A stretch of 64,000 nt of DNA, from the NCBI GenBank assembly GCA_036172245.1, contig JAYWIR010000041.1:1674001-1738000 (forward strand). Direction: 5' to 3'. The stretch comes from Raillietiella orientalis. Taxonomy: Eukaryota. This document shows, in pieces, positions 27,981 to 51,960 of the stretch. The first letter of the stretch is position 1, and each line of letters begins with the position of its first letter. A model generated the notes under the pieces. It was not told where the DNA came from and did not search any database. It worked only from the letters and a program-made list of their open reading frames with translations. The position numbers and the translations under genes were made by a program.

Positions 27981-28370
27981 AACCCCCTGCAGTCATCGCA
28001 TTTTCGAACTACGAACAGAGGGAAGTAACCACCAGGCTAGAAGAAACTGATTTCAGGAGAGCAGGTTCCGTTGCAGCTGCCGTGGAGCGGCTGTGAAGCA
28101 GGTTAAGGACCCCTTCCTTCTAGTCTGATGGTTTCGTGCTGTTGAGTCACTGCCTCAAGCTTCTTGGACCTGCTTCTTACAGTCGGTATCACAGTTAAAG
28201 AGAGTGATCGTCGGTTCAGTTCATCATCAGATGACGAGATTCCACCATGAAACAAAGAAATTTCCCCAGAGGACTCGAGCGAGGATGCTAAGAGCACTCT
28301 CATACCAATTCTTCGGAGCAGTGGATTTTAAACCTTCCGAGTTAATTGTGATCACCTCTGCAGAGTTGTC

Positions 28371-29480
28371 ACCCGGTACTCCGGGACGTTTATTCAGTAC
28401 AAAAATAAACGTTCACAATTTTTGTGGTATAACCAGTGGTCCAATTACGCCCATTTCAAAGGGAGCCTGCCGGATTGCCGGCACGCACACCGGTGGGGTT
28501 CCTCTCGGCAGCAAAGGAGAGGGGGCAAACAAAAAGAAACAAAAATAAAAAATAAATAAACTTGGGAGGGTGCGGGAGGAAATCACATTCTGCTGAGGGC
28601 GGTACTCTGCATCCTTTCGAGGATGCTGGTAAGTTCGCGCTGCATACGATCCAGGTGAGGCCATCTTGTTGCCATCCTCAGGAAGCGGACGGCAAAGTGA
28701 ATGGCATCTCTGTCGCTCCGTCCTCTTGCATTGCTCCAGGCCCTTACAATCCTGCGTAGACAGCGGAGAGCTGCTAGCGAGGCTGCTGGACCAAGGGCGT
28801 CGCGTACGAGGAAGGTTCTTAATGCGTCCCTGGGGTTGCCGCCGGGGGCTCCTAGGGTCGCGGCAAAGCGTTTCCAGAGGGGCTGGAGAGCAACACAATC
28901 TACAAGCAGGTTCAAGAGGGATTCAAGTTCCCCGCAACTGACACAGTTCGGGTATACACGCACCCGGGTCCAGTGATGCCTGCGGGCGCTGCATGGGAGA
29001 CCCCAGTGCAGCTGCATCAACGCAGACTCCTACTACTCGAAAGGGAGGGTACGAGTGTCTAAGGGCACTGGGGGCCACTGTAGATTTTTTACTGGAACAT
29101 CCAGCAGCTCACTCCAATGCAGAGTCCTCGTGGTGTGGCTCTCGGGGTCGCAGCGTCTGTAAGCTCGCCCGTCGTCCACTCACGCAGTTCTTTTCTCCTG
29201 CCGGAGATCTCTATGGATACAACCCAGCTTGCCGGAATGCTTCTGCCCCTGTGTTCCCTCAGAGAAGGAAGCGCTGCGGCAAGGGAGATTGTTCCTGTCC
29301 ATGCACTCTTCCCGGGATGTTTAAGGATCTCCCGGAGAGAGCAACTCCTGTAAGATCCGTACAGGAATCGCTAGGCAACACCTCTGCAATGTCTGTACAC
29401 CGTCTGACTCTGGTTCAAACCGTTGTCGGCACTGACTTTGCTGTCCTGAAATCAAATCTCACCTAAGGGGAGTAATATTA
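28371..29480 (-). mobile_element. Tx1/L1-like LINE 3' fragment (zf-RVT/CCHC region + 3' UTR), copy A
   Basis: LHWGLP..RHHWTRVRVYPNCVSCGELESLLNLLVDCVALQPLWKRF. Bases ~28400-29112 are near-identical to ~45546-46292. Confidence 0.9.
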
Positions 29481-29889
29481 TACTCTTGGGAAGCATAGGC
29501 TCTAGTATCCAAGTCCATCTCCTCATCTCTGCGTGGGCTGAGAACGCGCGAGACGGGCTCTCCTCTGCAGGAAAAGGAGCCAGTGGTCAGACAAGACCGA
29601 GTGCCTGCTCTCTTTGCTTTTCCTGGAGCCTTATAAAACCATTTGCCTCTATTCGAAAGGACAGTTCCCGTCGATTAGGATAACCCAACCTTTGCTTTGG
29701 TGTCAAGGTATTCAATCAGCCCATCCCTTGGAGGAACTCCAAGGGATGGGCTGACTTGGCCGACTTGGCTTGAAAGGCTGACTCGGAGTGACGCTTCGTG
29801 ATTGTATGGGCACTATGAAACGGCAAGACAAGCCTATGTTCCCCCTCCTGTATCCTAGGGATCTGTCGCTATGCTGCGAGAGATCTATG

Positions 29890-31000
29890 AAGCCGGCTCG
29901 TTCCAGCGCTACAGAGGCTCTTCCTCTAGTGAAGAAATGGAGAGCGAATCCGTGGTAGATGTTCTTGTGTTGTCTTGCCTCTTTCGAATCTGCGGCTGAT
30001 GGTTTGTAGGGACTAGGGAGTCCTCCAGAAGCCAAACGACTCTTTCGTTTTTTCCAAAGAGGAAAAGGGAGGGAAAAGGGAAATAAACAAAAAACAAATA
30101 AACCAAAAAAGGGCCAAAATGTGGGGGAAGCAAGGGAAGGGATCACTGCTATCTCCCTCGCGTCCTCTACATCCTTTGCAGGGTGCCGGTAAGTTCCTCC
30201 TTCTGTTGAGGGAGATGTGGCCATTCCGTAATCACCTTCAAAAAGATCACTAATGGAAAGAAGTCTATCATCGTGGTAGCTTTTAGGCGTTACGACCCCA
30301 AGTAAGTAGCACGGAGCTGCAGCGATTGACGCCGCAAGCGAAGAGACCTCTCAGAATGCGTCTCTCGTCAACTCTCGGTGAGCTCGGGGACGAAGGCAAA
30401 CGTTCCCAAACACTCTGGAGGGGAAACGCACTCGAAATGCAGGTGCAGGAAGATTTCTTCCTCACCACACCTGGCACAGTGAGAGGCTCCACCTCCCCTG
30501 GTCCAGTGGTGGACGCGTGTGTTGCGTGGGATAGCCCAATGCAGCAGTGGCAGCCCCAAATCCTGTCACTCCAAGGGAAGCACGGAACTGTTTAAAATAC
30601 CTCGGGGATCTCTGCTTCATCCCACGGGATTCCAGGAGATCCGCCTAGTGGAAAAGTTCTTTTGGGGAAGGAGGACAGCGGGGGTGGAAGTATCAGCTAG
30701 CTGATGCTCCTCCCATCAACCCAAGAGTATCTTCTTTCCTGCTATTTGGTGGCAGGACGGCGGCCAATTTGCCAATGTCTTGATTTTCCTGTAGGAACAT
30801 CAGCGCCGTAGAGATGTTGTTGAGACCATGTGGTTTTCCCGGAGCATTCCAAAATCTTCTTTAACAAGGACGAAGCGTAAATGCCACAGGCATGTCGTTC
30901 CCTCCTGTTGCAGTTTGGAATCGCTTTCCAGCATTGGTCTATACTAGCGCTATCAGCTCCCAATTTTCCTAGACAGTGCTTGGTCGAAGCTGCCACTTCA
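29890..31000 (-). mobile_element. Tx1/L1-like LINE 3' fragment, diverged
   Basis: LHWAIP..RVHHWT..HCARCGEEEIFLHLHFEC..VWERL. The 3' UTR is similar to those of the other copies. Confidence 0.75.
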
Positions 31001-31029
31001 ACATGATCCCTCACTCCGAGTTGCCAGCA

Positions 31030-31660
31030 CGGTGGCTGAGAATGGGGTTGAGAAGTTCCTGTTACCCCACGCATCTCCTGCACATGAGACCGCCACTCTC
31101 CCTGGTGGGTGCCTCTCACACAGTGTGAGGGACCCCTTCGGTTCGTTCAGGTAGAGTAGGTGTGTAGCTACCTCTACAGATGCTGAAGGAGCAGGCTCCC
31201 CATCCGGGAGGAACTCTCCAAGCCGCACTGATGGAGCAGATGTGTAGCCACCTCTCCAGAGAGTGCAAAGAAGCGAACCGATTTCTTCGAGGAAGCAGTG
31301 CCCTTCTGAATTTCGGAAGCGTCCTTCCGGAGTTCCTTTCAGAGGAGTAAACAGGAGTGGTCCACTTTCCGGGAGGTTCCTCCAGAGAGAATGAGGGAGG
31401 GGTGATTTTGTTCGGGGTTCCCTTCAGAGACAACCAGAGGGGAGGTTCCCTTGCGATATCCCTTTCCAGGCGTGAGGACAGACTCCGATCCCTTCCTGGA
31501 TTTATGAAGCGAACCTCTTCCGGGTACCTTCCGGGTATCTTGAAGAATTGCATGCACCCTCGGGTGGCGTGGAGCAGTGTGAAAGAGTTGTGCGAGCCGC
31601 GACGCTCTTGAGGTACTGAGCTAACCAAAAAAAATAAAACCCGAGAAAAAAAAGAAAAAA
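31030..31660 (+). mobile_element. SINE-family copy lacking a recognisable tRNA head
   Basis: Reverse-complement match to the 7470-7790 and 59130-59290 bodies (ttctgaatttcggaagcgtcc; gcaccctcgggtggcgtgga). A-rich tail at ~31627-31660. Confidence 0.75.
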
Positions 31661-32749
31661 ACTGGAAGGAAAACAGCGAAGACAGAATAAGAACCCAAAA
31701 GTTTTCCATCATCCTCGTGAGCAAATGGAAAAGTTCCCAACCCTTAATTATCCTTCTTTAAACGCAAAGAGTCCTCAGATCGATCCTGTCCTTTGTAGGC
31801 CATGGCCCACCCTTAGTACGGGCACGTTGTGACAGGAAAGGCTAGTGCTTCCTTGAAGTCGATCATTCGCAGAATCCGCACCAGAAGTTGCAGGTGTGGA
31901 TGACCTCGACAACCATCCAGCATATCAGGGTCTCACCGGTTGGCCTGCTCCTTCGACTAAGTACAGGTGTTCCCACTCTCCCGCTCTCTGGAATCGCGCG
32001 CGGAGCAACAAGACCGATGACACAGCAAATTTCTGAAGCCAGAACCTGGTGGTTAGTGGATGACTAACCAAGCTGCATTAATCTCGAAGATGTTCGAGGT
32101 TGTCGAGTTCCCAGTTCCTACGTTTATGTTCCTTAATTCGTTCATATTCCTGCCCACAAATTGAGATGAGCATCCGCGCGACCAGGAGGATTACTGAGAC
32201 CCTTTCAAAGTGGTGCCTCGAGAAAGGAATTGTCCATGTGTAAGATACTGTTGTTTATAGTCTCCGAGACAAGCTATGATCCTGCACGCGTCTCCTTGAT
32301 TCTCCAGCTGCAAAGCTTATGAGGAAATCTGCCGTTCAACACGCGACTGCGTTGCCTATTTGTTTTCATATCTTCCCATGATACATGGAAAGTGCTCTTT
32401 GAGGACCTAACCGTTTGTTTCACTTGGGGGAAGGATGGTATCTGCCTTATCTCCAGTCTTCACGCGCTCCGTTGATAGAGAGAGAGAGAGTCAGCCGAAG
32501 AGTTTCTTGCTCACTCCATTCCAGGATTCCCATCTCCTGAGATCCATACGGTCACGTCGTTTCCTCTGCGATGGTCATCGGACCTTCCGCGTTTCTCTTT
32601 CCTCTTTGTCTTCCAGCCGCAAAGGACGATCGGAAGAGGTTGCCTTCCTCTCTTCCATCCCGACGAATCTGCACGGGCACTCTCTTGGCGGTTTGGCTGA
32701 AGCAAGAAGGGAACCAATATTCTCCGGAAGAATCAGATAGGGATAAGGG

Positions 32750-33880
32750 AGAGGGGAACGAGGCGAAGACACCTGAGCGTGCATCTCGAAAGTGGCGATA
32801 CAGCCTTGAGCGGCAGCATCCCTGCGTGGAAGTGTGTGACGTTTCCTCCGCAAAGGCGTGGCCCGACTTCCATCATTTCTCCCCTCGCCGCAGAGCTGTC
32901 TGCCCTCAGGGCAAGCTACGACAGTAGCCAACCGGCGAGGTGGGAGTTCTGCGTCGTTGCGGGAAGAAACAAACTCTTGGCGACTGGAAGACGCGCGAGC
33001 TGGTGGATACTTCCACTCCGCGTGCCATGGCTACGGGACTCCTTCTGTGGAGCGAACTTTCGAGTCTTGTCCCCGAAGAACTTGTGATCCCCCCTCCCCC
33101 CATTGCTTGAACACTCCAGTGTTTCCTCTCTTCTGGAAACAGGCCGTGCTGCTCTTCCTCCGCTGGGGATTCCAGTGCAACGAGAGGCGACACTGCGTGT
33201 CCTCAAGGGTTGCCACCCCCCTGCGAAGCAGGTGCGGGTCGGCGCGGAGTCGATCCCGCCGCACCTGCTTTTGGACGGCGGTGTCCTCCAGGAATCGTGG
33301 CGGATGCTGGCATCAACACTCCTGCACCGGGAAGACACCGCCTGAGATGTGCTGCCACGCTTCTTCGCTCCGGGAGGACTCTCGACTGTAGCGGTGGTAG
33401 CTCGCCATGTGCTCGAGACAACCACGTAGCGAAGGGAGGTCACTGAAGTGGCAGCCACCTACATGAGGACGGCTGCAAGGTGACCTCACCTGGAACAGGA
33501 ACTGAAGGAAGAGATCCGCTGGCATCCAGCGTTGGTTTGAGGACAGTTAGGAACGGCGGAAACCTCTGACCCTTGTCCCCTGACTCCCTTTATTTTTTCC
33601 TCATTCTCCATTCCTCATCCCTCTTAGTTTTTTGTTTTGATCCCGGTGCACACGGAACGAATTCAAAGATCCCTGTCCTATCCCACCATATTTGTTTTAT
33701 TTATTGATTTTTTGTGTGTGTGTTTTCCCCCTTCCCTCTCCTTGCCGGACTTTTGGTTATCCCTGCCTGTGTTCTGCGTGTCGATGGACCTTCTTCTTGG
33801 AGTTCTTTTGTCGTCGGTTGGGAACCAGCGTGTTCCCGACTGGTTTATTTTTCACCCGGGGGTGACCGGGTGAAAAACTT
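32750..33880 (+). mobile_element. Tx1/L1-like APE endonuclease fragment followed by a family 3' UTR
   Basis: AGDSSA (cf. GDFN) and LTWNR in APE order. A T-rich UTR follows and ends in tttttcacccgg-gggtga-ccgggtgaaaaa. Confidence 0.5.
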
Positions 33881-34749
33881 CCATCATTTGCACAGAGGCG
33901 ACTTCCACCATTTGGAAGCGCATGGAAAAGAGCCGCGGTCACCTCTGCGCGCGCTCTCCGAGACGTCTCCAGTCGCCGCATGCCTAAGTACATCGCGCTG
34001 ATCTGATTGCCCGACCTACAGCTCGTGTCCCCAGGCAAGTACCGGCGTAATGGGGGGAAAACGCTTACCGAAAATACCGGCTCGCGCTTTCCTCGCTTTC
34101 CGCTCGAGGCATCCGCGAAACGCGGTCATGTGATCTCTGGCGTCACGCCGTGTGGAGCGACTGGGGAGGAGTTGAAGCTCGTGGGGCTCCGAACAACCAG
34201 GAGGAAGGCACCGTCCCCCCCCCTCCTCCTCCCCCTTCCCGCTGCGGTAACCGCACCGCTTTGCAGCAGGTCCGAGCATCTGAAAAATTCCTGGAGAGCC
34301 GCTCTCTGATCCTGCTCGGAGAGGGATTGCGCGCGCGCACGTGGCTTGCAGAAATTCATTGGTCCAGGGCGTACTCGGCCACCGATCGACGCCATTCCCA
34401 TCGAGGGAAACAAGCTCGCTCGTCCCGATCGACACAGAGCACATTTTTATCATCAACAATCCACTTTCACAAATTGGAAACCCCGTGGAGGGAGAAGAAA
34501 AAAAAAACGTGGATGGCTTCATTTTTCTTTCGAATACGCGACGGCTCTCTGAATCAGCAAAAGATGACTGAAAGATATGAATACCATTTAATAAGCTGGG
34601 AGATGAAATAAGCTCTGAGCTCTCTGGATAGGAAAAGCAATCTCGCATCCAATTTTTCCGATTAGAACCTGATTTGGGAGCAGCAGGAAAATCACTCCGG
34701 AAACGCGGGCGCATCCGGGAAGCTTCTGGAGGAGGCGCGGGATCGGAGA

Positions 34750-35220
34750 AAGGAGGCAGGAAAAGGAAGGAAACGTGGAATCCGAGCCGCTTGGCGACTC
34801 CGCAGTGGGAAACTGGCTCTCTGCCGGGAACGAAGGCCACCCGGAGGTGGAGTCTGGTGATGGACGGTTCGTCGTCACCCTCGGTCCTTTGCAGATCCCG
34901 GATCAGGTCCGACAGGTCTTCGCGGGGATCTTGGACAAAGGGATGCAGCAAGGAAGGATCGTCGTGATTTGATCTCTCCCGCGGTGGTCGGTGTAGCCGG
35001 GCTGCGGTGTTTTTGTGCCTCCTTTTGCTCGCCTGCCTGTGGGAAGGCCGCATACAGGGAAAGCAGACCTTCGTGCTGACCGCGCCGCAACAGCAGCAGC
35101 AGACACCGAGAGGGGAGGTCACGGAAGAACCGGTCCTCCCAATCTCTCACCGCCGAATTTCCTCTTGGAGACTTTCAGAGCATGGCGAACAGGGAGGTCC
35201 CGATGGAGCGTCCTTCGTAG
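34750..35220 (+). mobile_element. L1/Tx1 ORF2 linker / RT N-terminal fragment
   Basis: DGRFVVT..IPDQVRQVFAGIL, then PIS..FLLETFRAWRTGR / GGPDG (cf. KSPGPDG). Confidence 0.55.
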
Positions 35221-38099
35221 GTGACGACGTTGACGAGGTACGCCGCTTGGGGAAATAGTAGAAAAGATCGGAATATCTTGAGGAAGTAAAGAGCAGGATG
35301 AGAAAGATGTAAAGGGGATAGAAACTCCCTCAGCTAGTGTCTGCAGAGATGCACAACTTCATCAGCCCACCTTACCGTTCACAGCTGGAGGCTATGACTT
35401 TCGCGTCTTCCCCTACGAGAAGCGAACAGGGATTTGCCTCGCTTTCCTGGATGACTTGGCTGTTTTCCTGTACTTTGGGAGTGAAGAGGTTGTCCTCAGC
35501 ATGTTCCAGACAGCTTCTCTATGCTGCCAGGAGGGACCTCATGCAAGGAGCTTCCATCCTTTTTATATTTCCACCTTTTTTGCTTTCTTTTACAGCAGCA
35601 TTTGGTGGGCTGGGAGTTCCTCGACGACTGTTCCTCTGAGTGAACAAGCGGAAACAAAATTTCCGGATCTTAGGAACCTAAGAAACTATGCATCACCCTT
35701 CCTCCCGTCTTCATCACACATACACATACACACATGCAAGACGTAGGAGCTATGGCAAGGAGAGCACCTGCAACATCGAAATGCATGCTTGCATCGAACG
35801 CAAAGTCTTGCCTCCGGTAAGCTGGAACAGAACTCGAAAGAATGGAAGAAAACATCGTCAAAAATGGTGTTGAAGAAGAGAAAGTATCGATCCCTCTAAA
35901 TCCGCGTCACTGACAGTCATGTCACAATGTCATAACGCCATCACCATGACAGTGTAACATCTTAGTATTGTGTGAATCCTCTGTATCTATCGCTGCTTCA
36001 TCTCTTATGCAGGCTCCACTGATGTACGCACTTTGTGCCCCCTTTCTTGCAATGCAGTGGCCACCCTTTTGCTTGACAAGAAGCCACCAAAGAATGGCTG
36101 ATGCAGAGGAACGAAAGCAAAGGTGTGTGTGTACGTGTCACGATCGTGGGAAGTGTAGCGCCAGGAAGGCATCCAGGTTGCAACGGAATGGCCCTTTCTT
36201 CGCACAGTCTTTAACTTTGCGTTCCCTGGAAACTGGTCTCCGAGGATATGAGTTTCCTCGCCCGGTACCCCTTTTTTGGAATGCCAGAAAGAGTTCCAAA
36301 GCAGCACTATCCTGTCTTCCTTTTGCAGTTGTTTCGTCGTTCCTGTTTTCCCATCCCGCAAACAACCCGTTTATCCATCATAAGTGATTTCCCAGATGAG
36401 CTTTATCTACGACTCATAGCATTTTCCGGGAAGTTTCCACAGCAGATTTGTGGGCCTGAGTCTCTGTATAAATATATCTATCAGGTAGTCGTTTTACTGC
36501 AAACAGTCTGGAGAAATTCCGGAGACGCATGAGCCTTTCAAGCCACGTTTCACTCTTAGAGCTGCATTATCTATCAAATGTACCTTCCGGAAGAGAAGAG
36601 CTCTTCCAGGTCGGGACCTCGTGGAGAAGCTTGTCAAGTGGATCTCGCGAATGGAATGCCTGCTTCTGTTATGTTCTACGATCCCAGGAACGTTCTGGGT
36701 AGGACAACCTTCGTTGCACTCGCACAATGTTCTTTCACCCCTTACTCTTCTCCAGCGAAATGCTCCTCTAGTAGGATGCAGGGAAGTCGCGAGTTCTTTC
36801 AGTATACGCAACTTTTATTCCAGGTATGGATGGATTACATAAAAGGCTAGGGACATTGTGTTTATCTTCCAAAGGTAAAACCATGTGGTATTTTTGAGAG
36901 ACATGAACTTCTGACATTCAGTCTTCAGAATAAAGACGAAAGAATTTCATAGTCCCCAAGTCCAACAAGCAGTGAGGGGACTTTATTAAGCACACGTTAA
37001 ACGAGAGTGTTTCATTTGCATTCCTGAATAAATGCAAAATGTTCTGGCATCCCAAAGCGACTTTTTCTGGAGAGCTGCTTTTCATGATCGCCGACAGGGA
37101 ATCGCATTTCGTTTAGCAGTTCGAAAATGACACCGATCAGAAGGAATCTCATTCCCAAGACTTTCAAAGACCCACTTCGAAAAGGTCCTCTTCAAATTCG
37201 CCAATGTGCTCCAGAAAGTGAGAAATCAACCTCATCCATAACCCGACTCTTTCATTCGGAGCAATCAATCTGAAACATCTAACCAGCAGTTGGAAGTGGT
37301 GCAAGAGATTTTCACTCTTCAGCTCTCGACACACATTCCGAATCTACTTTTTTCTCCCAGAGAGATGAATCGGAATTCCTACCAGAAGCGAGCACATCCA
37401 AGAGAACGATGCAACTGGCTTTGCCGTCAGAGCAAACGCCCTGTATTCCTCATTTACACAAACCAAGAAAAAAATGCAGGACACCTGACGGGACTCGGGT
37501 ATCCTGTAGCACCGAATTTGAAAACTCGGAACCACGCGTTCTCGTTCGAAACAGCGCATTTCACAGGTGCGCTTCATCAAGGATGAATCAGGAAATGTGA
37601 AGAACACGGAGAAGGACTGGCCGGGTGCGATTCCTTCCTCGAAGTATGTACAGTTGTTCCCTGTTAGAGTGAGTAGGCAAGAGCCACGACGCACAACCAC
37701 ACAGACTGTTACAACAACTGTTACAACGTAAGGACAAGGAGAAATACTGCACAGGTCCAGGAAGCGAAGGCTAAACGAAAACAGAACATTCTTCAGGGAT
37801 TCCTCATGCTTCTGAATCTTTAAAGATTCTGTGGGAGTGTTTCCGGTTGAAGCTTCAATATTTTCCCAACGCAGAGATGGAAAAAATACACATCAAGAAA
37901 ACGAGGCGAAGGAACTGCAGAGAAGAAATAAGAGAAGCCATCTTTCAAGAGCTGGTAGACGTCTTCTGTAGGTCAGATTTTATCTGATAAGACTCACAAG
38001 TTGCATCAGGACTCCATAGCTCATGATTAGAACTGGATGCACTGGCAAAGCAAAGGAAGAATGTACGTTCTTGCAAGAGGAGTCTCAATTGCAGGAACA

Positions 38100-38420
38100 G
38101 GCACACTTGAGACAAATCTGGAAAAGATGCTGGAAGAGTTTTTTTTACTGCTCATGAAATCAGTTTCTATAATATGAACTCTGTGAAAGAATGAGAAAAA
38201 ATACCAGATAAGGTGGGGTACCTCTTCTAAAAGTAGATCTTTTTGAAATTGATGATGATGCTTGGGTAAACGCTCTCTGGATACTCGATTTACCTTCCAT
38301 TCAGTTAGCAGAGCCAACTGTGATTCCCCCAAAAATTGGAATCTCCAGATAAAAGGCAAAATGGATGCTGAGCTGCCTCTCATGACTGTGAACGATCTCA
38401 ATGCCCTCGGAACTAGTTAT
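38100..38420 (-). mobile_element. LINE APE endonuclease remnant
   Basis: HPFCLLSGDSNFWG..NGR*IE resembles PF.L.GDFN....WG....GR.IE. Confidence 0.4.
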
Positions 38421-39325
38421 AAAAATCCCTTACCCTGATTTTCTGAAAATCGACATAATTAGTAGGTGCTCGTTCCCACTCCAGGGCACCTTCCAGAATA
38501 TATTTTCACACCTTTCTAAGCAGTTCCCTCCCTCCCTCCCCCACTAATGTCTGTGCTCTGATAAGAATCTTTATCAGGTCTCCGACTTTGGATGAAAGCG
38601 AAAGGCGTTGGAAACTCATTACTCGCCTAAGCGATAACCCTATTACATGGTAACAAATCCAAATGTGTTGACTAACAGGAAAAAATGTTCACAATGATTT
38701 TTTCATCTTTGCAATTTAAGGATCAGAATTTTAGTGGGAAAACAGCGGCCACTCGAATAGAAGAGGCTGGAAAGCACGCACCAAGCCCTACGGCTTTGAT
38801 TCTGCAAAGTGGTTGACATTTCGTTCGAGTTCAAGGAAAAAGGAATGGGAGTAACTCAGTTTCGAGCATTGGTATCTTTTTTCTTGGCATCCGGAATAAC
38901 ATTTAGTGTTTGCGTTTTGTGTGTATTGCATCTTATTTACTTCTCTTCTCGAGCAATGTTCTTCGGTGAATGAGTGAAAAAAACCAAGTTAAGAGTACCA
39001 AAAGTAGTGCAAAGATCAAATTTTATTTGTTTGAGCCGTTTCTTTTGCTGATGCTTTAGCAGTGCCGTCAGCTCTCAGAAGGCTTCGTTGACCTTCGTTG
39101 ATCAATGCTCCAGAAATGTGTTCTCCAAGTTCAAAAAGCAAAAGCAAAGACTGTTTGAGAAGTTCGAGATCCATTTACTAAGTATTTGGAACAGGGGCTG
39201 AAGATGACCAGAAGAATTCGTCAGGAGGAATTAGTTAATATTCTGGGAAACAAACATGCTTATGTTTAGATTGTGACAGAAGGATGCAATTTTCAGAATG
39301 GTTCTCGCGGGCATCTCTACGACAG

Positions 39326-39448
39326 ATAGCTGATGCGATACTTCGTGATGGTGATGTCATAACAGGAAGCGATTGCATAATAGAACAAGAAACTGGTAAA
39401 ACCACACTTGAAGCAGGAAAAATCTATCTTCGTGGAGCGGTTAGAAGG
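39326..39448 (+). other. Bacterial endosymbiont-derived fragment: Wolbachia phage WO DUF4815-like protein
   Basis: IADAILRDGDVITGSDCIIEQETGKTTLEAGKIYLRGAVR is recognised from memory as close to the N-terminal part of Wolbachia prophage DUF4815 proteins (IGDAIFRDGDVITGSNCIID.ETGKVTLE.GKIYLRGAVR). The frame is uninterrupted, the sequence is A-rich, and similarity stops abruptly on both sides. Confidence 0.85.
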
Positions 39449-39759
39449 GCGTATCTGTGTGCAGGAAGTTGGTTTGCTGGTCGGACTGTTTAAAGCCTCA
39501 TTTCGGCTTCAAAATCTGTATTCTACTTTCCCAAGAGAAGTCCGAAACTCAGGCAGTTTGGTGTTTTTGTACGATGTGAAGCTCCGTTCTGTTTCACCGA
39601 ACTTCAGCTATTGTTTTCATCTTTTTCACAGCTGAAAAAAATGGGCCAAAATTTGGGTGGCGGGCTGTTGCTAAATTTTCATTCATCGCTTGAAATCCCG
39701 CAAGCGTGGAAACATTTTCGCTGACAGGAGTTCATGAATGTGAGTCAAGTAATTATCCT

Positions 39760-40790
39760 CAAGACATTCTCTTCTTGGAAATAATGTCTGCATAAACTTT
39801 AGAAAAAGGTCTTCCTGAAAGGACACGAGCTCAAACACATCCCTCCGTAAGCTACAGTTAGTTCTATATCCAACCAGCTGTGAGCTTATCCTATCCTGTC
39901 TGCTGCCATGGAGCGTTCTTCCATAGATGAACCAACATGGATTTAATAACAGGATGCTAAAAATATGGGCGAGATTCTCTTCACTTGTCTCAACTCTGTA
40001 CTTACATGACCTCGTAAGTCATATCTGCGGGTTTGCAGCAGATGCACTCGCAATCAGAGATACCAAATAAAAAGGAAGCATACGTAGCACAATTCTTCGA
40101 AGTACGAATCCTGAACCTTGTCAGATACTTTTATGCCAACTACAGAATGCAAAAATGGCATCGGAAGTATCAGGTAGGATAGCCTCAAGCTATCCTTCTT
40201 GATTGCTAACATTTGCTTATCACTGCTGCGAGAGTTCTTCATCGTTTTTCGTGACAAATTCGTCCTACCCTGAAGAGAACATCAAGTAGGGTATGAGAAA
40301 TACTCTGGAAATGGTTGGAGAGCTTTTGAAGAAGCATAGTAACAGGAGAATAACGTTTAACATAATGAAAGGATAATGGTGAGGTTCCAGTAAGAAGAGT
40401 TTTATCAGTGGTAAGAGAAAATGGCCCCATCCTCAACTTGACAACCCAAATTACCAAGGAAAAAGGAAGAATACGATAAGGTGGAACGACGAATGAAAGC
40501 GAAAACTCTTCTGAATTTTCTTGAAGATAAACCAGGGAACTAAATTGCAGCACCACAAAATACTGTGCTTCCTAGATAGCAGAAAAGTAGATTGGTCTCC
40601 TGGGAATCTCAGAATAGGGTACGAGTTCTAGTTGATAAAGATATCATGTTGATGAGACGTCATCGCCATGTACCTCTTCAGCGATTAGAAAAGCGTTCGC
40701 AGAAGCGGTGGGTTGTCCAAAACCACGGGGTGAGCTCAAGAACAGGGAAAAAAAACAGAAACTTTCAAAGTCTCGAGTGTATCGTGGATG
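39760..40790 (-). mobile_element. I-like LINE ORF2 remnant (APE to RT start)
   Basis: FFLGNL (cf. LGDFN), LLTGTSP.SFH, SNHF (cf. SDH), PIFLASC (cf. RPISLTSC), QLVGYR (cf. Q.GFR), in order. Confidence 0.55.
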
Positions 40791-41849
40791 TTTCCTAGCA
40801 ACCAACTGTTTTTTTTTTTTTTTTTTTTTTCAGATAAATGAGGAAAGAGCACAAACACAGGTTTGATCTCTAGGCCAGCACTTTTAGATATGCCGTCACC
40901 TTGCTGAGGATGTTTGTTCTTCGATGGGAGAGATGAAAATCCGCTTTCATCGCTGATCATTTAGGAATCATACTGAAAGCAGATTGCTGTAAGATAGATG
41001 ATAGTATTTAAGCAAAGAATCCAATTAGTCAAGGCATTTCCGCCGGACAAATGGGTTCTTCTTTACGATTGGCTGACCAAAACTCTTAGGCCGAAGGAAG
41101 AACACCGTGAGTGAAGACGAAGACAGAAGTCACCACTTGATCTTGCTTGCAGATGTGAGTTTACTGTTTTGTTGGACAACCTTGTGCAATTTTCCTTTTT
41201 TTTTTTTGGCCTTTACCTAATGTGGGAATATTTGTAAATGAAAAGGGATGCAGCGCAGAGGTTCATCATCATCATAACTTCAAACTTTTAGACAAAAGCA
41301 AACCCGGCCATTTATAAACAACTGAGTCTCCTCGATAAGACGTGTAACTTCTTCAACAATTTCAGCATAATTTGTTTGAAACGGCAGTAAAAGTTGGCTT
41401 CCAGCCTGCCAACGCAGATTAAGACCACTGAGTTTCTGTCCAGTGAAATGTTTCGCAAGGAAACATAGATATTCACAAATTCTTTTGGCTAGATGGGTCT
41501 TTGACTGTGGCAAGCACTACCCTCCATATCACCATCACTCCATCACGTTCTTTTTCTTTCTTCCTTTCCATTGCATACCTCAATGGTGAATCTCTGTCAT
41601 CGAATTCTGCCCTCAAGCGTTTGTGAATCTTTCAAGAATGTTTGCTTGGGATCATTCGTGATCATTATACTTTGTGAATACCACCAGGTGATTCTATCAA
41701 AGTGCGTGCGGGTGAATGGAATTAATTTCCCTCACTGCCGTTTTTGACTTTTCCTCTGAGGGTCTCCCAGCATAAATGTGAAACCATTTTTAAAGTATAA
41801 GATTTAAAAGATTCAAGATTACATAGAGAAATGCATGGAAGGATCTCCA

Positions 41850-42560
41850 GAAGTTTCATTGACCTGTCTCGCTTCATCCTTGTATTTAACCCTGTTAAGT
41901 GGGGAGCATACGGGATTTCCCTCTTGTCCTCCGGCGAACAGCTTCGACGTTTCTTTGAGCTACCGTAGTGACTTATTTTCTGTAGAGGTCGTTGACCTTA
42001 GCGTGCCTTGGATGCTTGACAGAGAACTGCTCCACATCCCTAGCAAAAGATATCATGTGGTCTTTTCGTCAAAACCCCAAAAGTAAAGCCAGTTCCCTGA
42101 AAGTAAAGCCAGTTGTTGAGGGCGACGGTCTCCTGAGGAGAAAGACGCATTGAGTAGCTCCTCGAAGGCAGGGACCACCACCTCGTCGAACCAAGCCAAT
42201 TATGAAATGGAGACCAGAACCTGAGTGGTCCAGAGGTATAAACCCACCCTTCTTTATAAGGTGGGGCATATTTCGAAGTCTGAATACATGAAGTTTGTCA
42301 AAGAGTTCCATCGTCCCGAGGTGCGCTCCGACGATCTATGTGCACTTGCAATTCTCGATGGAGACGAGAGCTTAACTCCATACCGCAAGAATGCAGTGCT
42401 CATCCACCGCCTACTTCAACTGCCAGTGAACCTCAAAGAGTGGAAGATTTTCCCACCCGGAAGGATAAGGCAATGGTGCTCACATCTAACAGGAATCAAC
42501 TTTCCTCTACATCGTCAAGGATACCATGGTCGTGGAATGTAGTCGGCAATGTCTACGTGA
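41850..42560 (-). mobile_element. LINE reverse transcriptase remnant
   Basis: TIALSF..GK, LFDKL, PQETV (cf. PQGSV), SFARDV (cf. FADD), in RT order. Confidence 0.5.
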
Positions 42561-42599
42561 TTTAGAGGAAAATAATACTCCACTGTTCTCATAAGGTAT

Positions 42600-42890
42600 T
42601 CAGTGCGTTAGCTGGAGCGCGGATGGTAGTGCCAGGCAGGTCGGTCTATCCCAGACGAACGCTCCACAGCTCACGACATCGGGAAGCGCCACCGGGAAGT
42701 CTTCTCCATGGAGATGACCGCCCAGTGAATGGCATTCTGCTGTTGTGGCCTGACACAGATGCAGACCATTTCGCCAGGATTCCTCGTATGCAACAGAGAA
42801 CTGCGACACACGCGGCTGCTGCATGGGCGTCCTGCATCAAGAAGCGACGGAAAGTGTTTCTTGGGTCGCCAACCGGAATATTCATTTACA
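42600..42890 (-). mobile_element. Tx1/L1-like ORF2 C-terminal fragment
   Basis: NIPVGDPRNTFRRFLMQDA..CVAVLCCIRGILAKW is homologous to 24082-24390. Confidence 0.75.
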
Positions 42891-43830
42891 CCCGGGTGCG
42901 TCAGGGCGTTTATTCTTGCGAACAAAACTTATATAAATTCTGTGTCTTGACCAGTGGTCCAGCCACGCCCTAAATGTTTGCAGCCTGACGGGTAACCGGA
43001 GTATGCAGACCGGTGCAGTCCACCTCGGCAGCAGAGGGGAGCAAAAAACAAAAAGAAAAAAAAATAAACAAAACTGGGGAGGGAGCAGGAAGGGATCACA
43101 GTCTGCTGAGAGGATCCGTCATCCTCTGGAATATGCCGGCAAGCTGTTGCTGGATGTTCGATTCCAGATGGGGCCATCGCGTCGCCATCCTCAGGAAGCG
43201 GGCGGCATATTCGCAGGCATCCCTGTCTGTTGGGTCCTCCCGTCGCCTTGCTCCATGCAGCGACGATCCCGCGTAGGCAGCACATGGCTGCAAGCGAAGC
43301 CGCTGCGGCAGAGCGTCACGGACGAAGAGGGGTCGCAAAGCGTCTCTGGGGTTGCCTCCGGGGATTCCCAGGGCCGCGGCAAAGCGTTTCCACAGGGGCC
43401 GGAGGGCAACACAATCCACTAAGAGGTGGGAGAGGGATTCCCTCCCCCCGCACCTAACACAATTTGGGTTCACACACACCCGCGTCCCTGGTGCTGAGAG
43501 CGTAAACCTGCCACCTTGGAACGGGCCGATCGCCGTCTCTACCTTCTGAAGGCAGCTGGACCACGCATCCGAAGGGAGATAATCCTCCAACGGTGCACTG
43601 AAGTACTTGAAGTACCGTACCGTGGGGATCCCCAAGCGGATCCAGTCCAGCTGCCCTGCCCACGCCGCTCCAACTGGCATCACGGACGACTTCGCCCTGT
43701 TTACCCTTAGCCTGTTCCCGACTCAGAAAGTCGAAGAACTCCTCGACCACGGGAAGCCGGAGTGGACATGGGGAGCAGCAGCAGAAGGTCGTCCGCGTAT
43801 GCTGAACGGCGTATCGGGACAATCGCTCGG
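42891..43830 (-). mobile_element. Tx1/L1-like LINE: RT core to 3' end with a large internal deletion
   Basis: SAYADDLLLLL (YADD at 43788-43799), LRVNRAKSSVM and VRYFKYF..WSSCLQKVE run directly into NPNCVRCGGRESLSHLLVDC. A 3' UTR with AATAAA follows. Confidence 0.92.
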
Positions 43831-44360
43831 CAGGTGAGCCAGAGTTTCCCTCTACGCTCTCAATACCAATTGGAAGTAGGTCATGAAGAGCAAGGGACTC
43901 AGGCTGTCACCCTGCCGTGTGCCGCGTCGCACCAGTACGCCATGCACGGTGTGCCCGCTGAAAGAAATGAGCGCGTCGCGCCAGCAGGAGCACAGGTAGA
44001 CCATCAAAGAGAACGGAAATCCCAAGCGTTCCAGGAGCTCCAGAAGGAGTCGGAATGTTCAGGATGGACGACAGTCCATTCCACATTGGGAGGAGGGAGA
44101 CATACTCGATTAGCAAGTGGGGAAAGGTTTCCCTTTCCCTGCAGCCTGCACAACTGGCATCCACATTCTCTAGTGTCCAATGAGAGAGACATGCTCTGCA
44201 AAGGAGTCCCCAATGCAACACGAGCAACGCCGTCTCTTGCCACTCCTAGGAGAGGGTGCCATTGTCCCAACGCGCTGGGGGCCACTTCACCTCCTCCGGA
44301 GGTATGCCAAGCAGCTCACGATGAAGTAGTGACATGGTTTCCATGGTTGAAGACGTGATG
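43831..44360 (-). mobile_element. Tx1/L1-like zf-RVT fragment
   Basis: LHWGLL..HWT..DASCAGCRERETFPHLLIE..MWN. Nucleotide similarity to 24350-24460. Confidence 0.8.
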
Positions 44361-44699
44361 CATCTTCCATCGTTCAGGTCTTGTGCCACATGGAGGTGCT
44401 GGGAGCAGTCCCTTTCCCGGTATGGGAACCACGGCAGTCTACCTCTAGGCCAGGAATGAGGATCAGTAACTGCGAACAGTTCGCCACGAGTGGCAATAGC
44501 CACAGAATGCGACGGTATCGTTGCATCACGAAAATGAAGGGAAGATTTCGCCGCAGGACCCTCGAGCTCTAGAAGCATCAAGAGACCACTGCTGATCAGC
44601 AGGGCCAGCATCCGCGAGGAAATGAAGAAAAACATAAACGAAGACGAACTGGATGAGGCCGCCAACTGCTACGGGGTACGCAATGTGAGCCTGCGAGCG

Positions 44700-45210
44700 G
44701 TTGGCACGATATGCTGAAGAACAATTTGCCACCAGATTCTCAGGATAACCTCCTGAGGCACTACCATGGAGGCATCGTGAGTGGCTCCCGACTGAAACAC
44801 TGGACAAGCAACAGCCAGGACGAGCTCTGGAAGTCTTGTGGAGATAGGGAAACCCAGATCCACGTTTTCACCTGCTTCACGCTGGGCCAGGATTTGAAAA
44901 CTCTGAAGGCGGTCACCGGTCTGCAGGCGAAGACGTGGATGGAGATTTTGGCGGGTATGCTTGAAGGGGATGGGAACATTCTCCGATACAATCCCATAAT
45001 TCGAACCACCATCGCCCTCTTCACGAACATCGCGAGAAGGGCAAAGATGCGGAACACCGGAACGAAGGTGCCTGCCATGAACATCATCCAAGGAGTGCTT
45101 AAGGATGAGAGGAATCAGGAACTGCTGCAGGATACTCTCCTGGACTTACTGCTACATCTTGAAGAATATGGCGGACGATGTCCGCGTGAGTGGATTACAT
45201 TGCCCACCTG
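44700..45210 (+). mobile_element. L1/Tx1-like ORF2 C-terminal fragment, different family
   Basis: RHYHGGIVSGSRLKHW...KSCGDRETQIHVFTC matches the zf-RVT pattern, in a 166-codon open frame. Confidence 0.65.
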
Positions 45211-45520
45211 ACTCTATTCCCAACCACCACCAAAAGAAAAGATTTTTCCAAAAGCGAACAGAGAAAGTGCCAATTGGTGACTTGAAGTGTTGTGTGAAGG
45301 AAGACTCGAGAAAGTGTCTGCAAAAATGTATCATTGTAATTCTTAATTGAATGTTGCTTAATAAATATACCCATCCGATGGTCGATCTGAGGACAATGCG
45401 AGAAGATTCCTGATGCCGTCAGTGGTCGTGGTTGCTAGAAGCTGCCCTCTAGAAACGCTTTCTTCGCCTGGCCAGCCTGGCACACCACGAAACGCAGAGA
45501 AGTGAAGGAGCTGCCTTCCC

Positions 45521-46292
45521 ACCCGGGTAAGCAAGTTTACTTAATGAAAATAAACATTTACAATTTTTGTGGTATAACCAGTGGTTATACTACAAAAATG
45601 GGCGTAATTGGACCAGTGGTCCAATTACGCCCATTTCAAAGGGCACCTGCCGGATTGCCGGCACGCACACCGGTGAGGTTCCTCTCGGCAGCAAAGGGGA
45701 GGGGGCAAACAAAAAGAAACAAAAATAAAAAATAAATAAACTTGGGAGGGTGCGGGAGGAAATCACATTCTGCTGAGGGCGGTACTCTGCATCCTTTCGA
45801 GGATGCTGGTAAGTTCGCGCTGCATATGATCCAGGTGAGGCCATCTTGTTGCCATCCTCAGGAAGCGGACGGCAAAGTGAATGGCATCTCTGTCGCTCCG
45901 TCCTCTTGCATTGCTCCAGGCCCTTACAATCCTGCGTAGACAGCGGAGAGCTGCTAGCGAGGCTGCTGGACCAAGGGCGTCGCGTACGAGGAAGGTTCTT
46001 AATGTGTCCCTGGGGTTGCCGCCGGGGGCTCCTAGGGTCGCGGCAAAGCGTTTCCAGAGGGGCTGGAGAGTAACACAATCTACAAGCAGGTTCAAGAGGG
46101 ATTCAAGTTCCTCGCAACTGACACAGTTCGGGTATACACGCACCCGGTTCCAGTGATGCCTGCGGGCGCTGCATGGGAGACCCCAGTGCAGCTGCATCAA
46201 CGCAGACTCCTACTACTCGAAAGGGAGGGTACGAGTGTCTAAGGGCACTGGGGGCCACTGTAGATTTTCCACCAGAATATCCAGCAGCTCAC
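45521..46292 (-). mobile_element. Tx1/L1-like LINE 3' fragment, copy B (near-identical to copy A)
   Basis: Matches ~28400-29112 with scattered substitutions, plus a ~35-bp palindromic insertion near 45586-45620. Confidence 0.92.
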
Positions 46293-46319
46293 CCCAGCTC
46301 AGAGCTGTCGGTACATGAG

Positions 46320-46495
46320 GAAACCGGCATGTGCGGTACCTGCGGGAAAAATGGGCATCCAACAAGAAAGTGCCCTCTTGTCGACTCTCGCTACCGCGAT
46401 CAGCTCGGGTGTACTGGGCAAGTGTCTCCGAAGCTGACAAATACGTGCTGCTACGGTCTGCGTGCGGTAAGGGCACCGTGTCCGCGTTTGCGAAG
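46320..46495 (+). mobile_element. LINE ORF1/gag-like CCHC zinc-knuckle fragment
   Basis: CGTCGKNGHPTRKC is a perfect CX2CX4HX4C. A second, broken knuckle follows (..VCVR*GHRVRVC). Confidence 0.75.
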
Positions 46496-46876
46496 AGCGG
46501 TAAAGTCCGCGACGGCAAGACCGGAAGCTGCAGCGTTGACCGGAAAAACGACAACATGGGCGTCCGCGAGACTGTCGGTCTCAGCTCCGGAAACGCTCTC
46601 CCCTTCGCTAGGGAAGAATTCCGGCGAGTCTCGCAGGGCTGGAAGGAGGTAAGCAAAAAGGATTCCCCGCAGCCTGCCTCCCCAAAGGCGAGTGGAAAGA
46701 GAACAGACCTCGCGACGGAAAGAGGCGCGCGAAAGGGTCCTCCCCTTCACCCAGGAGGGCGCCGTCATACCTCCACAAGGAGCAGCAGAGAGTGCCGGAG
46801 GAAGCGCTGCAGGAGGAAACGGAATGGAGGAAAGGAGGAAACGCGCGCCACGCGGAAGGCAGTGGGACTTTTCCGA

Positions 46877-48010
46877 CCCGGTTGCGCTGGGGAGTATAGT
46901 GGTCTCTATAAACTCACAAGAAAAAAAGCAGTATTAGGACGCTTTGTCCTACCACCCCCAAATGTACCTCGAAAGTACTGGCATGCCGGCTCGCGGACCG
47001 GCAAGTTCCTCCTCAAGGACAGAAGAAAACAAAGAAAAAAAAAACACAGAAAGCGAAACGAAAATAAAAAGATATATAAACATATTGATATATAACTTGT
47101 GTGTGTGTGTGGAGGGGACTCGGAAAGGGATCACTGCTTGTTGCAGGAGGTCCTCTGTGTCCTCAGAAGGATGTCGGCAAGTTCCATCCGAATATTCCTC
47201 GGATGTGATCCGAGAAATATACGAATCCCATAGGGCGAATATTGGCATGAGGCGAATCACGAAGCCGATGGACTCTCTTTCGTCCTGACCTCCTTCGGTT
47301 GAGCTCCAGGCCGCCACAAGCTCACCAAGTCAACTAACGATGTAACTAGAGACAGTGCTTCTCACACGAGGAGGCTCTTAAGAACACCTCTGGATGAGAT
47401 ACTATAAGATTGCGTGCAGGAGGAAACCACTTCGTTGTCCACCGGAATTCGAAGGACCGTTACAAAAACGTTCCCAGACGGATCGGAGGGCAGCACAATC
47501 CACAAGCGCGTGGGGCATCTTGGAACTGAAAACGGAAATACTGAACTTTCCTCGCACTTGCCACAGTTCGGGTCCTCCCCCTAGGCGAGTAATGCCAGCG
47601 GGCGTGGCATAAGAGACCCGAGTGAGAGGTAAGCAGCTCCGATTTCTGCCACCTTAGGAAAAGGGCGAACATATCTCTGAGTACTGCTGGAAGCAACAGA
47701 TCTTCCAGGAAGATATCCAGGAGCTGGATCCGGCAGATTAGTCATGAGGACTCAGCATCGCTGAGCAGCCCCGTTGTCCATCCAACAACCAAGTGGCTTC
47801 CTCCTGCACTAAGAATCTCACAGCTGATTTCCCACATCGCCGGTAAGCAACCGCCACTTGCCTCATTTAAGGAAGGCAGCGCTGCAGCAAATGGGGGTTT
47901 TGATGCCCACGCAGTCTTCCTAGCTATGCTTTCAGCCTTCCCCAACGGGCTAAGAGCGTAGGCGCTGCGATTGCTCCCCCCACTTCTGGACTGTTTGCTA
48001 AAGCCAGGCA
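46877..48010 (-). mobile_element. Tx1/L1-like LINE 3' fragment, diverged
   Basis: DPNCGKCEE..HALVDCAALRSVWERF, upstream LPS..SGGCLP, a T-rich 3' UTR and a degenerate terminal stem. Confidence 0.7.
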
Positions 48011-48049
48011 TTACCGTGGGGAGAAGGGAAATCCGGGCGTTAAAGAACT

Positions 48050-48240
48050 AAGAAGAGCAGAGAGAAGAGACCATCTGCCGAACGGCTGATACCCGCAACG
48101 GAGCATGCTTCGGTGCTCGCACACGAAGAAACATTGCTAATCCCTCGGAACCGACTGCTTTCTTGGAGCGGACGTGCTCGGGAACTCACTGGGGTGTCGG
48201 CCGATTTTTCGCCACCAGAGCAAATCTTCTGAACTGCAGC
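48050..48240 (-). mobile_element. hAT transposase dimerisation-domain remnant
   Basis: EDLLWWRK..SEFP, then SVAGISRSADGLFS (cf. WW....FP.L....S...ER.FS). Confidence 0.5.
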
Positions 48241-48839
48241 TGACGCTCCATTCTTCCAGCGTCAGGAGGCTCCTATATCTCGACGTGGAGCCACTAGATC
48301 TTTCAGACGGACACATGACCTTTCCTTGCTCCACAGAGCGTTCCTCAGGAGGTCCGCTGTCATTTTTTTTTTTCCGTTTTTCTGGGAAAGGGACAAGCAG
48401 AAATCAGGAGACGAGATAGTCGGACTCCGAATTTGAGTCCCTATTAGTAAGGAACGAGTACAACACAGCATGAAAACGGGTGGGACCCTATCAAAGCGTG
48501 CGGGAAGTGAACTGGCTGCCGGCGACGGCGCTGAGCTTTATTCGAGGGCGGAATTCTCTTGTCTCCGATGATTCGGAAAGGTGCTGCACGTGAGAGGGAA
48601 GGCGTAATGTCTCTTTCCAATCACCTGTGCTGCCGGACGACTACCCGTCGGGCGAGGTGCTCCCCACTTTATTGCCTTCTCAGCTGTAACGCAGAGGATC
48701 GCTTCCTCTCATCTTCCCAGTGTTGCCTGCTGGAATGTCGACGGACTTCACGACGGCGATGCGCTGTGCCCATTCCGCCTCGCACTCCAGCAGGGGATTC
48801 GCATCATATCCTACCATGAGATTGCAGAGGTCGAGAGAA

Positions 48840-49330
48840 GCACAGAAAGGAAGTTTCATCGAAGTTGCGAACGATCAAGCGGGGTCACACTGCTCACAAA
48901 GAGCCGAGAGCAAAGGAAGCAAGGAGTAGCATTCCTCTCACGATGACAGACGAGTGGACCAACTGGTCATGGAACTTGTCGCAACGAACGCCACCCTTCA
49001 AATTCCTTCGGAAGGGTTGAAGTTGCAGGATGAATTCTTTACGACAAGGTGGGTGGGCGAGGACGAATACCGTCAAACCTATTGGATCGCCTCGTCATAG
49101 ATAGTGAGCTGCTTCCTCCTGGAGGTACCCAAAACAAAGATTTGGAGGATGACTGATGGCTGCGTCGGCCACTGGGAAGCATAAAAAGAACTTCGAACCT
49201 TCCCAGAGGGCTGCTTCATGCACAAAGTGAAAGACTCAAACCACATCGAAGATTGGCGCACGTCTCTTTTGCGAGTGACAGCCTTTCCATCTTCTCCTGG
49301 CAAACTTTGTCGGAATGCAGGCGTCTTGAG
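48840..49330 (-). mobile_element. piggyBac-like transposase C-terminal remnant
   Basis: W..KFFLCF..DAAISH (cf. W..KLFF...D.A..N), RKEFILQL, VRCD..H, CEQCD. Confidence 0.45.
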
Positions 49331-49599
49331 GAGTGCACTACATTGGCTCTGCATAAGGCCAACCTGTCATTTGAATGCAACAGTCCTGCGAAACTTCGAG
49401 GACAACAAGGTACGCATTTCGCCGGAGCATGAACTCTACGCACTGGGCAAATATTCCATCTATTCACGGGAGTGTCATCTGACGAGGACAGCTATGCCTC
49501 ACAGGGGCCTCGAGCTTCGCGTGCACAGTCTGTTGTAAGAGGTTTCTAGCGGTCTTGATAAGTCCTTCACAGGCAGATCAATCGTAGCCACTAGCAGAA

Positions 49600-51960
49600 A
49601 GCTCAAAAGTAAAGATGCTCCAGATGTAGAGAGTCTGCCTACGGAGTTTTACCACTCTTTGCGACAGAGCTGGTTCTCTTGATGGTACTGCTGATTCGGT
49701 AGACGGACCAAGTGCAAAAAAAGAGATTCGCTCTGCCTGAGCTAACTGGAGTCCCCTCAGACTCATGAATGAAAACATCAAGCTGCACTCCAAGGTGCCG
49801 AACGTAAAAATAGGACAGTTGGCAGGATCCAAAATCAGCCCGAAGGAAACCTACGCGGTCCCAGGTCGAACCATGGATACCATGGTTCGACCTGGGACCA
49901 TGGTATCCATGAATGAACCATGAATACCAACCTGCTTCACGCCCACACCTAATTCAGGCTGACCATAAGAAGAAGCCATAACTGCTTCTAAAAAGAGTGC
50001 AGGGTGCGCGGGAGGTTCACACGGTGTTTCACTTGAGAAAGGAGTACTGACTTTTGCAGTCGATCATCAGAAGGCTCTGGGCTGCATCCATCAGGAGCTC
50101 CTTCTCAAGCTACTGGAACTGTGACTCTCAAGCCAGCCTCCTCAGTTACCTGAGCTTGCTGTGGCACAAAGTCAAAATTACCGTTCTCTTCAGCGGTCTG
50201 CTCATCAAAGACAACAAAGTCGAAAGAGGAACCAGGAATGCGGACAGATTGAGCAGGATACTCTTCAGTCTCTGTACTAGTGCTGAACACGTACCGGCAC
50301 ACTCTAGCCTGTCTCCCGTCCAGCTCCTATGACAAGCCTGGTGCAGCGGCCTATGCGTACGGATTGCTCATCCTGGTGCCCATGAGGATTTCAGTAATCG
50401 CACGCGAAACCTTCTTCGAGCTGAAACGAATCTCCTAGAGCGACGAGGAGAGCAAGCATTCCAGAGAAAACAAAACAGGAGCTCCGAGAGCACTTCCTGC
50501 CTGACACAGTCGAAAACCTTTGCAAGACCAACCGACATAGCCAAGGTTCCTGGCTCTTCCTTTCGTTTGTGTCTTCCCCTGCTCAAGTCGGACTGCACAT
50601 TCAAAGGCCGGCTTCTTTTGAGCGCGACTCAATTCTGTGGCCTGAACTCGGTCTGTGTGCACAAGTTGCTTTCAATGTTCCGTCCAGGAACAGCTAAATT
50701 CCGGGTTAATGACAGAGTCCTCCATCCTCCCCAGTCACGCAGTGTTCACAGTTTGGAAAGCAATTTGACGTCCAAATTCACGACGTAATCGGACACCAAT
50801 TTCTCAGTCTGCGAAATTCTTTATTGAGGGCAAACGAACCCTCGCCGATCGGAAGGATGCAGGCAAGTCGGCCGCCTCCCTGATCACTTATGCCAGCTAC
50901 AGCAGTGGGAGCTCATTTTCGCTGCGAAGCACTGATAAAGTGATAAAGTGCCAGCAGGCCGTTCTCCTTCGATGCTGTTCGCCTCTTGACTTTTGCCATG
51001 GCAGCCAAAATTTCGGCTATCGCGAAAGGCTGGTCAAGAATTATTCATGGCTCCTTCTATATGGCGAGTGTCTTCCAGCAGCAATTGCTATGCGGGGTCT
51101 CGCTCCATGGGTTCATGCTTATACAAGGAAGAGCAGGAAGTCTCTGCAAAACCGATGGCTCATGACCTTGCTCGTCCAGCACGCATAGTACTCCGGACTG
51201 CCCAGTCTGCTTCTCGGCCCTGGACCGATATTCCTCCAGCCGCTCGCCAGCAGAGGAGGCGTGACCCGCAAGAGATGCTACTGTTGAGAACTGCCTCCTC
51301 AGAGGTTGTGGAAAGTTGATAGATGGAAAAATAGAGATAGAACTTTGGGAGCTCCTGGGTAACAAAGTCACTCAGGAACCTGAAGTTCGTCCTTCTTTCG
51401 AAATGACTTAAGCCAGTCCTCTGGTAGCCGCTAGATGTGCATTGGCATTTCTTTCCCAGGAAGCACTAGCTTCAGCTCGATTCCTGTGTTGATAGGAAAA
51501 AAGATTGACCTCCGACTTACTCTGCACCCGACCTAGACCGGCAGGAACAGAGGGAAGTGGTCAACGGAGTCCATCATCTGAAGTTCGTGGGCCAACAAGT
51601 TCGATGCGTTCACGGACGCGCACAACTCGTTGACCTGAGCCCGCTGATTCCAACTTTGAAGCCATTTGATAACAAGAGGATGTTAAAGCCGCCCTCTGTC
51701 AGATGCATAGTCTGGAGGCCAGAAGTGGTGAGTCACTGCGTACGGAGGGCATCAATGAATGGACGACGCCCCGCATAAGCGCGCGAGCAGCTCGGAGCGT
51801 AAACATCCGTGACAATCAAACTGAAAGGGTCCAACTGGCTCGATCACCGACCGTCCCTCTCGAAGTGAACGCTTACCCACCGCTCCTAGTTTTGGGTTTC
51901 ACTAGAAATGCGACTCCGCAGGGCTGTGCAGGTATTTGCACTTCCAGTGTGATATCGCGT
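49600..51960 (-). mobile_element. Decayed LINE ORF2 (APE + RT), CR1/L2/Jockey-like
   Basis: CGVAFLV (APE), RTLSL, QTEFR, VGLAKVFDCV (cf. D..KAFD.V), LDGRQARV, YVRHLGVQLD, in canonical order. Confidence 0.7.

Follow-up and report, generated by a model that had tools for sequence, protein, structure and literature searches.

A 121-bp fragment of a Wolbachia phage WO gene as a probable nuclear Wolbachia transfer in eukaryote-like DNA

The window analysed here, a 64-kb stretch of DNA, encodes IADAILRDGDVITGSDCIIEQETGKTTLEAGKIYLRGAVR on the plus strand at 39326-39448. The original prediction had read this short stretch as a capture of Wolbachia prophage WO DNA embedded in host DNA. The locus raises the question of whether so small a piece can be traced to its donor, where exactly it begins and ends, and whether it is a relic, an error of assembly or a sequence that the host has put to use.

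The assignment to a DUF4815 gene of phage WO held in all comparisons. The frame matched the Pfam DUF4815 profile (PF16075) with 40.7 bits (E 1.3e-10; gathering threshold: 30 bits) and also matched PHROG 17266, a family with unassigned function (E 1.8e-16). When 50,697 phage records were searched by tblastn, the top ten matches were all Wolbachia phage WO, with 63.5-67.3% over 52 residues and E values down to 3e-17. A BLAST comparison, of the kind that had been proposed as a check on the prediction, gave the same answer at the DNA level: blastn against the same phage records matched only 10 records, all of them WO and all over exactly 39326-39446 (83.5-88.4%; E values down to 7e-36), which is far beyond chance. 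The WO record MW788656 was identical to the fragment at 107 of 121 positions without gaps. Among 60 Wolbachia genomes, 31 were matched by the fragment with at most 88% DNA identity, nearly all of them with the same edges.

Searches of broader collections yielded a consistent picture. Eight loci were confirmed in species-representative genomes, comprising four from Wolbachia (67-69% over 48-49 residues) and those from Holospora and from a Pedobacter, an alphaproteobacterial and a cyanobacterial MAG (49-58% over 43-48 residues). In a collection of 5.8 billion proteins, all 30 matches were DUF4815 proteins, and those carrying an organism name were from Wolbachia (67-77% over 50 residues) except for one listed under the spider Nephila pilipes. 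Within the 40-residue core, identity was highest for the protein of the Wolbachia of Folsomia candida (36/40), followed by wCfeT and an unnamed JGI protein (35/40 each) and the remaining 27 proteins (28-34/40). The claim that WO proteins carry an 'almost identical' peptide was thus overstated. IMG/VR contained 80 further loci, none above 88% DNA identity. The closest copy of all was found in an insect gut metagenome (run X1, share 0.04), where a 293-nt contig spans 39326-39446 with nine differences (92.6%). This contig departs from the window sequence exactly at 39446 and continues as WO-type sequence, so that it represents a bacterial copy and not the host locus. Neither the 60 Wolbachia species genomes nor the 80 IMG/VR loci contain a copy this close to the fragment, which makes an unsampled donor variant plausible. 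In every collection searched, the nearest relatives of the fragment are DUF4815 genes of Wolbachia or phage WO.

Some of the proteins retrieved in these searches deserve mention. The protein under Nephila pilipes (P0009; NCBI; 346 aa) is a DUF4815 protein that agrees with the window core at 32 of 40 residues, and it represents either Wolbachia contamination of the assembly or another symbiont-to-host transfer. Several short DUF4815 proteins found in assemblies of Logan, NCBI and JGI (P0001, P0007 and P0021) end in tails that look out of frame, and the tail ...NFTQFITLKMEY is common to P0001 and P0007. The appearance of these tails suggests frameshifted or pseudogenised DUF4815 copies elsewhere.

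The WO-derived fragment (39326-39446, plus strand) is homologous to approximately codons 46-85, in the 5' region of the ~640-aa DUF4815 gene, a gene of the tail-proximal module that is known in phage WO as VrlC.1 (gp15 of WOcauB1). The gene has been deposited as VrlC.1 or gp15 and elsewhere as 'virulence-associated protein'. The 'virulence' label is the depositors' own and is based on similarity to a Dichelobacter locus. In WOVitA1, the DUF4815/VrlC.1 gene lies just upstream of VrlC.2 and of the tail sheath and tail tube genes. PMC3173496 reports VrlC in all tailed WO prophages. Unlike the WO gene, the window copy retains only 40 of ~640 codons and lacks the start, the rest of the domain and any adjacent phage genes. 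Since only profile positions 35-82 of 570 are present and nothing more of the gene occurs in the window, we regard the sequence as a gene fragment and not as a member protein of the DUF4815 family.

The original prediction had described the fragment as about 120 bp long and sharply bounded, and both statements proved accurate. Matches to natural copies started at base 1 of the 121 bp in 52 of 52 cases and ended at base 121 in 51 of 52; a few genome comparisons would allow a 3' edge as far as 39449. The flank at the 5' junction (39300-39325) is non-Wolbachia sequence ending in ...CTACGACAG directly before the fragment, and no Wolbachia match was found upstream between 34000 and 39325. At the 3' junction (39447-39475), the non-Wolbachia flank starts with GGGCGTATCTG, where WO copies continue with AAGTCGAAAAAGAAG... 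past the edge. The gene's own flanks are nearly invariant among WO copies, and those of the window have no counterpart to them on either side. The edges are therefore true breakpoints; they do not mark where a longer insert fades out through decay. An extension of the similarity upstream to 39302, seen at the protein level by tblastn, was rejected because DNA similarity is absent 5' of 39326. A search of metagenome contigs for exact 24-nt strings that cross either junction gave no match, a result that is uninformative. No direct or inverted repeats flank 39326-39446 and no direct-repeat array of the kind that surrounds CRISPR-like spacers lies around the piece, so that the notion of a 'spacer-like capture' was not borne out.

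We also asked whether the window holds any further Wolbachia DNA. Comparison of Wolbachia genomes with window segments 1-20000, 20001-40000, 34000-45000 and 44001-64000 returned nothing beyond the 121 bp. With 11 proteins of a WO module as tblastn queries, there was one significant match in the window (residues 38-87 of the 643-aa protein, E 2.5e-17), and all other matches had E values of at least 0.12. Nineteen full-length Wolbachia DUF4815 proteins were combined into a profile, which was run against all 2,818 stop-free window segments of at least 12 residues and likewise matched once (E 3.2e-20, profile positions 40-86), the next E value being 2.6. The 121 bp are the only Wolbachia-like DNA in the 64 kb. 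Non-Wolbachia DNA thus lies on both sides of the piece, in this assembly only, with 39 kb upstream and 24.5 kb downstream free of Wolbachia matches.

Judging from its composition and gene content, the window resembles eukaryotic DNA that is poor in genes and lacks the CpG depletion typical of vertebrates (CpG o/e 0.82), and the host chromosome is probably eukaryotic and invertebrate. GC content ranges from 29 to 62% per kb. Neither tRNA genes nor Rfam families were detected in the window; three small tandem repeats are present, including a (GT)13 microsatellite, and there are no tandem arrays near the fragment. A Pfam scan covered 383 stop-free frames: 135 of 105 aa or more across the whole window, 98 with 55-104 aa within 33-46 kb and, outside that interval, 150 of 189 frames with 72-104 aa. 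None of them reached a family cut-off, including that of any transposon protein, and the sole transposon-like protein signal found in the window was a weak RVT_1 trace on the minus strand at 43855-44058, 4.4 kb from the fragment (18.8 bits; cut-off: 29.6). These data do not sustain the description of the region as a 'TE-trap locus'.

Several other features of the window were recorded. A unit of ~690 bp occurs at 28432-29124 and again in direct orientation at 45612-46304 (97.4%), with a third copy at 42889-43487 (~72%); its frames have no Pfam domain, and either a non-autonomous repeat or a recent segmental duplication could account for it. A second dispersed family is found at 7473-8078, 31184-31590 (inverted) and 59110-59601, with 68-87% identity (68% between 7548-8078 and 59110-59601). 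Its copy at 59-60 kb forms a GC-rich island (49%) in an AT-rich block (29-38% GC) that extends from ~53 kb to the end of the window. On the minus strand, a 241-codon open frame at 26470-27192 gave a sub-threshold match to RPE65/carotenoid oxygenase (23.2 bits; cut-off: 27). Its protein-atlas features and clusters were of RPE65 type from mixed taxa, an exhaustive representative search gave one match (E 5.1e-4) to a 'carotenoid cleavage dioxygenase-like enzyme', and a word-indexed protein search gave none; the frame may be a diverged exon or a pseudogene. Also on the minus strand, 24085-24420 matched the Pfam family Sex_peptide below threshold (22.9 bits; cut-off: 25; E 9.7e-5), which could be due to chance.

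The original prediction had pointed to the absence of stop codons. The stop-free stretch is real: the ORF list contains an 84-codon frame at 39239-39493 (plus strand) that includes the fragment. It is not remarkable, since 21 of 578 stop-free runs between 36 and 43 kb are at least 84 codons long, and the open frame therefore carries no weight. The frame is an incidental one, in which the 29 codons before the fragment and the 15 codons after it belong to the flanks and lack DUF4815 similarity at the DNA level. The frame contains an in-frame ATG at 39284; an AG dinucleotide immediately precedes 39326 and a GT is located at 39440. This 84-aa frame, which spans both junctions, was absent as a called protein from the collection of 5.8 billion proteins. 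Neither strand of the fragment is predicted to form an unusual RNA structure (z -1.27 and -0.26).

Divergence from natural copies provides a second view of the state of the fragment. Thirty distinct natural copies align to the fragment without gaps, and it differs from them at 14-21 sites; among themselves, they differ at a median of 7 and a maximum of 21 sites. Only one of the 30 stands as far from its closest neighbour as the fragment does. Much of the 12% divergence may therefore pre-date the transfer, and no age can be derived from it. From the majority state of the natural copies, the window departs at 15 sites. Nine of these departures are common to at least one natural copy, including those that give 'SDC' and 'KTT' as in the wFol and wCfeT types, and six are private. 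The private changes amount to ~5% of sites, a figure from which no date is derivable without the host's mutation rate. Changes from AT to GC outnumbered the opposite (10 W>S versus 2 S>W), but the excess is not significant (p = 0.17) and the pattern recurs in some natural copies, so that 'amelioration' of the insert was discarded as evidence.

At the protein level, four residues are private to the window copy. At three of these positions, where 29-30 natural proteins carry G, F and D without exception, the window copy has A2, L6 and E20; its fourth private residue, Q21, falls on a hypervariable site. Constraint has been lost at the three invariant positions, and these changes fit decay of a sequence freed from protein constraint. 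Relative to typical WO there are six replacements, each of them chemically conservative, as could equally be expected if the sequence had diverged under protein constraint in a bacterial lineage that has not been sampled. The counts are also small, and third codon positions account for 7 of the 15 departures from the natural majority. We therefore consider it likely, but not proven, that the fragment evolves neutrally.

These findings have to be weighed against other ways in which WO-like DNA could have come to stand in this contig. In our judgement, it is unlikely that a host repeat or transposable element once captured WO DNA and now carries the fragment, the window copy being one of many in the genome. 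Repeat families do exist in the window (28432-29124/45612-46304, 97.4%; 42889-43487, 72%) and so does the sub-threshold RVT_1 trace, but the 6.7 kb around the fragment (36000-42700) have no second copy within the window, no terminal repeats flank the piece and no TE domain is found less than 4 kb from it. An assembly artefact, in which host DNA was chimerically joined with reads of a live Wolbachia infection or a contaminant, would require two chimeric joins 121 bp apart within a contig of at least 64 kb. It is true that a single assembly attests both junctions and that the junction strings are absent from metagenome contigs. However, at least 14 of the 121 bases differ from each of the 30 distinct natural copies, and the altered invariant residues are unlike live symbiont DNA with an intact gene, which renders an artefact quite unlikely. 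We consider it very improbable that the donor was another intracellular bacterium, or its phage, with a WO-like DUF4815 gene. DUF4815 genes do occur in Holospora, in alphaproteobacterial and Pedobacter MAGs and on many IMG/VR contigs, and sampled Wolbachia never exceeded 88% DNA identity. Nevertheless, non-Wolbachia proteins reach 49-58% whereas those of Wolbachia reach 67-77% over 50 residues, matches at the DNA level are confined to Wolbachia and WO records, and the 92.6% contig from X1 runs on as WO-type sequence.

Functional co-option would make the fragment a host exon or short ORF, or a source of piRNAs or siRNAs directed against Wolbachia or phage WO. The 84-codon open frame with its ATG, the AG and GT dinucleotides and the conservative nature of the amino-acid replacements are compatible with this explanation, but open frames of such size are common locally, no other exon of a DUF4815 gene is present in the window, three invariant residues are altered and the RNA structure is ordinary on both strands. 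Nor are there nested TE fragments as in a cluster, and a bacterium dwelling in a vacuole would be no obvious target for host small RNAs. Co-option therefore has, in our estimate, very little probability. Its small-RNA form had been suggested by analogy: foreign sequences become captured in piRNA clusters, as endogenous viral elements do in those of mosquitoes, and the locus could be likened to them as a short foreign fragment in non-coding host DNA. Unlike such captures, the source is the prophage of a bacterium and not a virus of the host. Dense nested TE remnants, by which a piRNA cluster or TE trap would be recognised, were not found in the 383 frames, although non-autonomous or heavily decayed elements are possible. 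We consider it extremely unlikely that the fragment lies in a germline small-RNA locus producing piRNAs or siRNAs complementary to a WO structural gene, with its sharp bounds resulting from selection for precisely this piece and not from random breakage. If this were true, the locus would be a heritable record of the symbiont's phage and possibly a brake on it.

The explanation that we favour, and regard as probable, is that the 121-bp piece of the WO DUF4815 gene is a nuclear Wolbachia transfer (nuwt) in a eukaryotic chromosome, a non-functional fossil that drifts neutrally. The donor would have been a WO variant of the wFol/wCfeT type outside the sampled collections, and its DNA may have been released from lysed Wolbachia or from phage particles inside germline cells. 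Ligation into a chromosomal double-strand break via end joining could then have introduced the piece, either as short filler or as part of a longer insert that was trimmed later by deletions. After insertion, roughly 5% private substitutions would have accumulated. The data show where the fragment comes from, how far it extends, that it stands alone, that its edges are breakpoints and that constraint is lost at invariant residues; integration into the genome of a living host, as represented by this assembly only, the end-joining mechanism and the absence of function are inferred.

As a nuwt, the fragment resembles those known from arthropod and nematode genomes in that Wolbachia DNA is located in host sequence, is truncated, contains no intact gene and apparently drifts. 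In PMC5541319, most nuwts are described as neutrally evolving fossils, and according to PMC12693587 the genomes of filarial nematodes each contain hundreds of NUWTs, short ones among them. We found no published size distribution of nuwts. Unlike the best-studied examples, the window holds a single 121-bp piece and no other Wolbachia DNA within 64 kb; the nuwts of Drosophila ananassae and Brugia malayi are described in PMC4299567 and PMC3849323 as large or multi-copy. Small dead Wolbachia inserts are already well documented in invertebrate genomes. The fragment is thus a new instance of an already known type of feature and reveals no new mechanism.

The original prediction had also held that the locus records a past or present infection, and it is reasonable to infer that this is so. 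If the insert is genuine, Wolbachia with a WO prophage of the wFol/wCfeT type has infected this host lineage in the past or does so to this day, and the fragment would be a useful marker of infection history. Such inserts can also mislead PCR- or read-based screening for Wolbachia.
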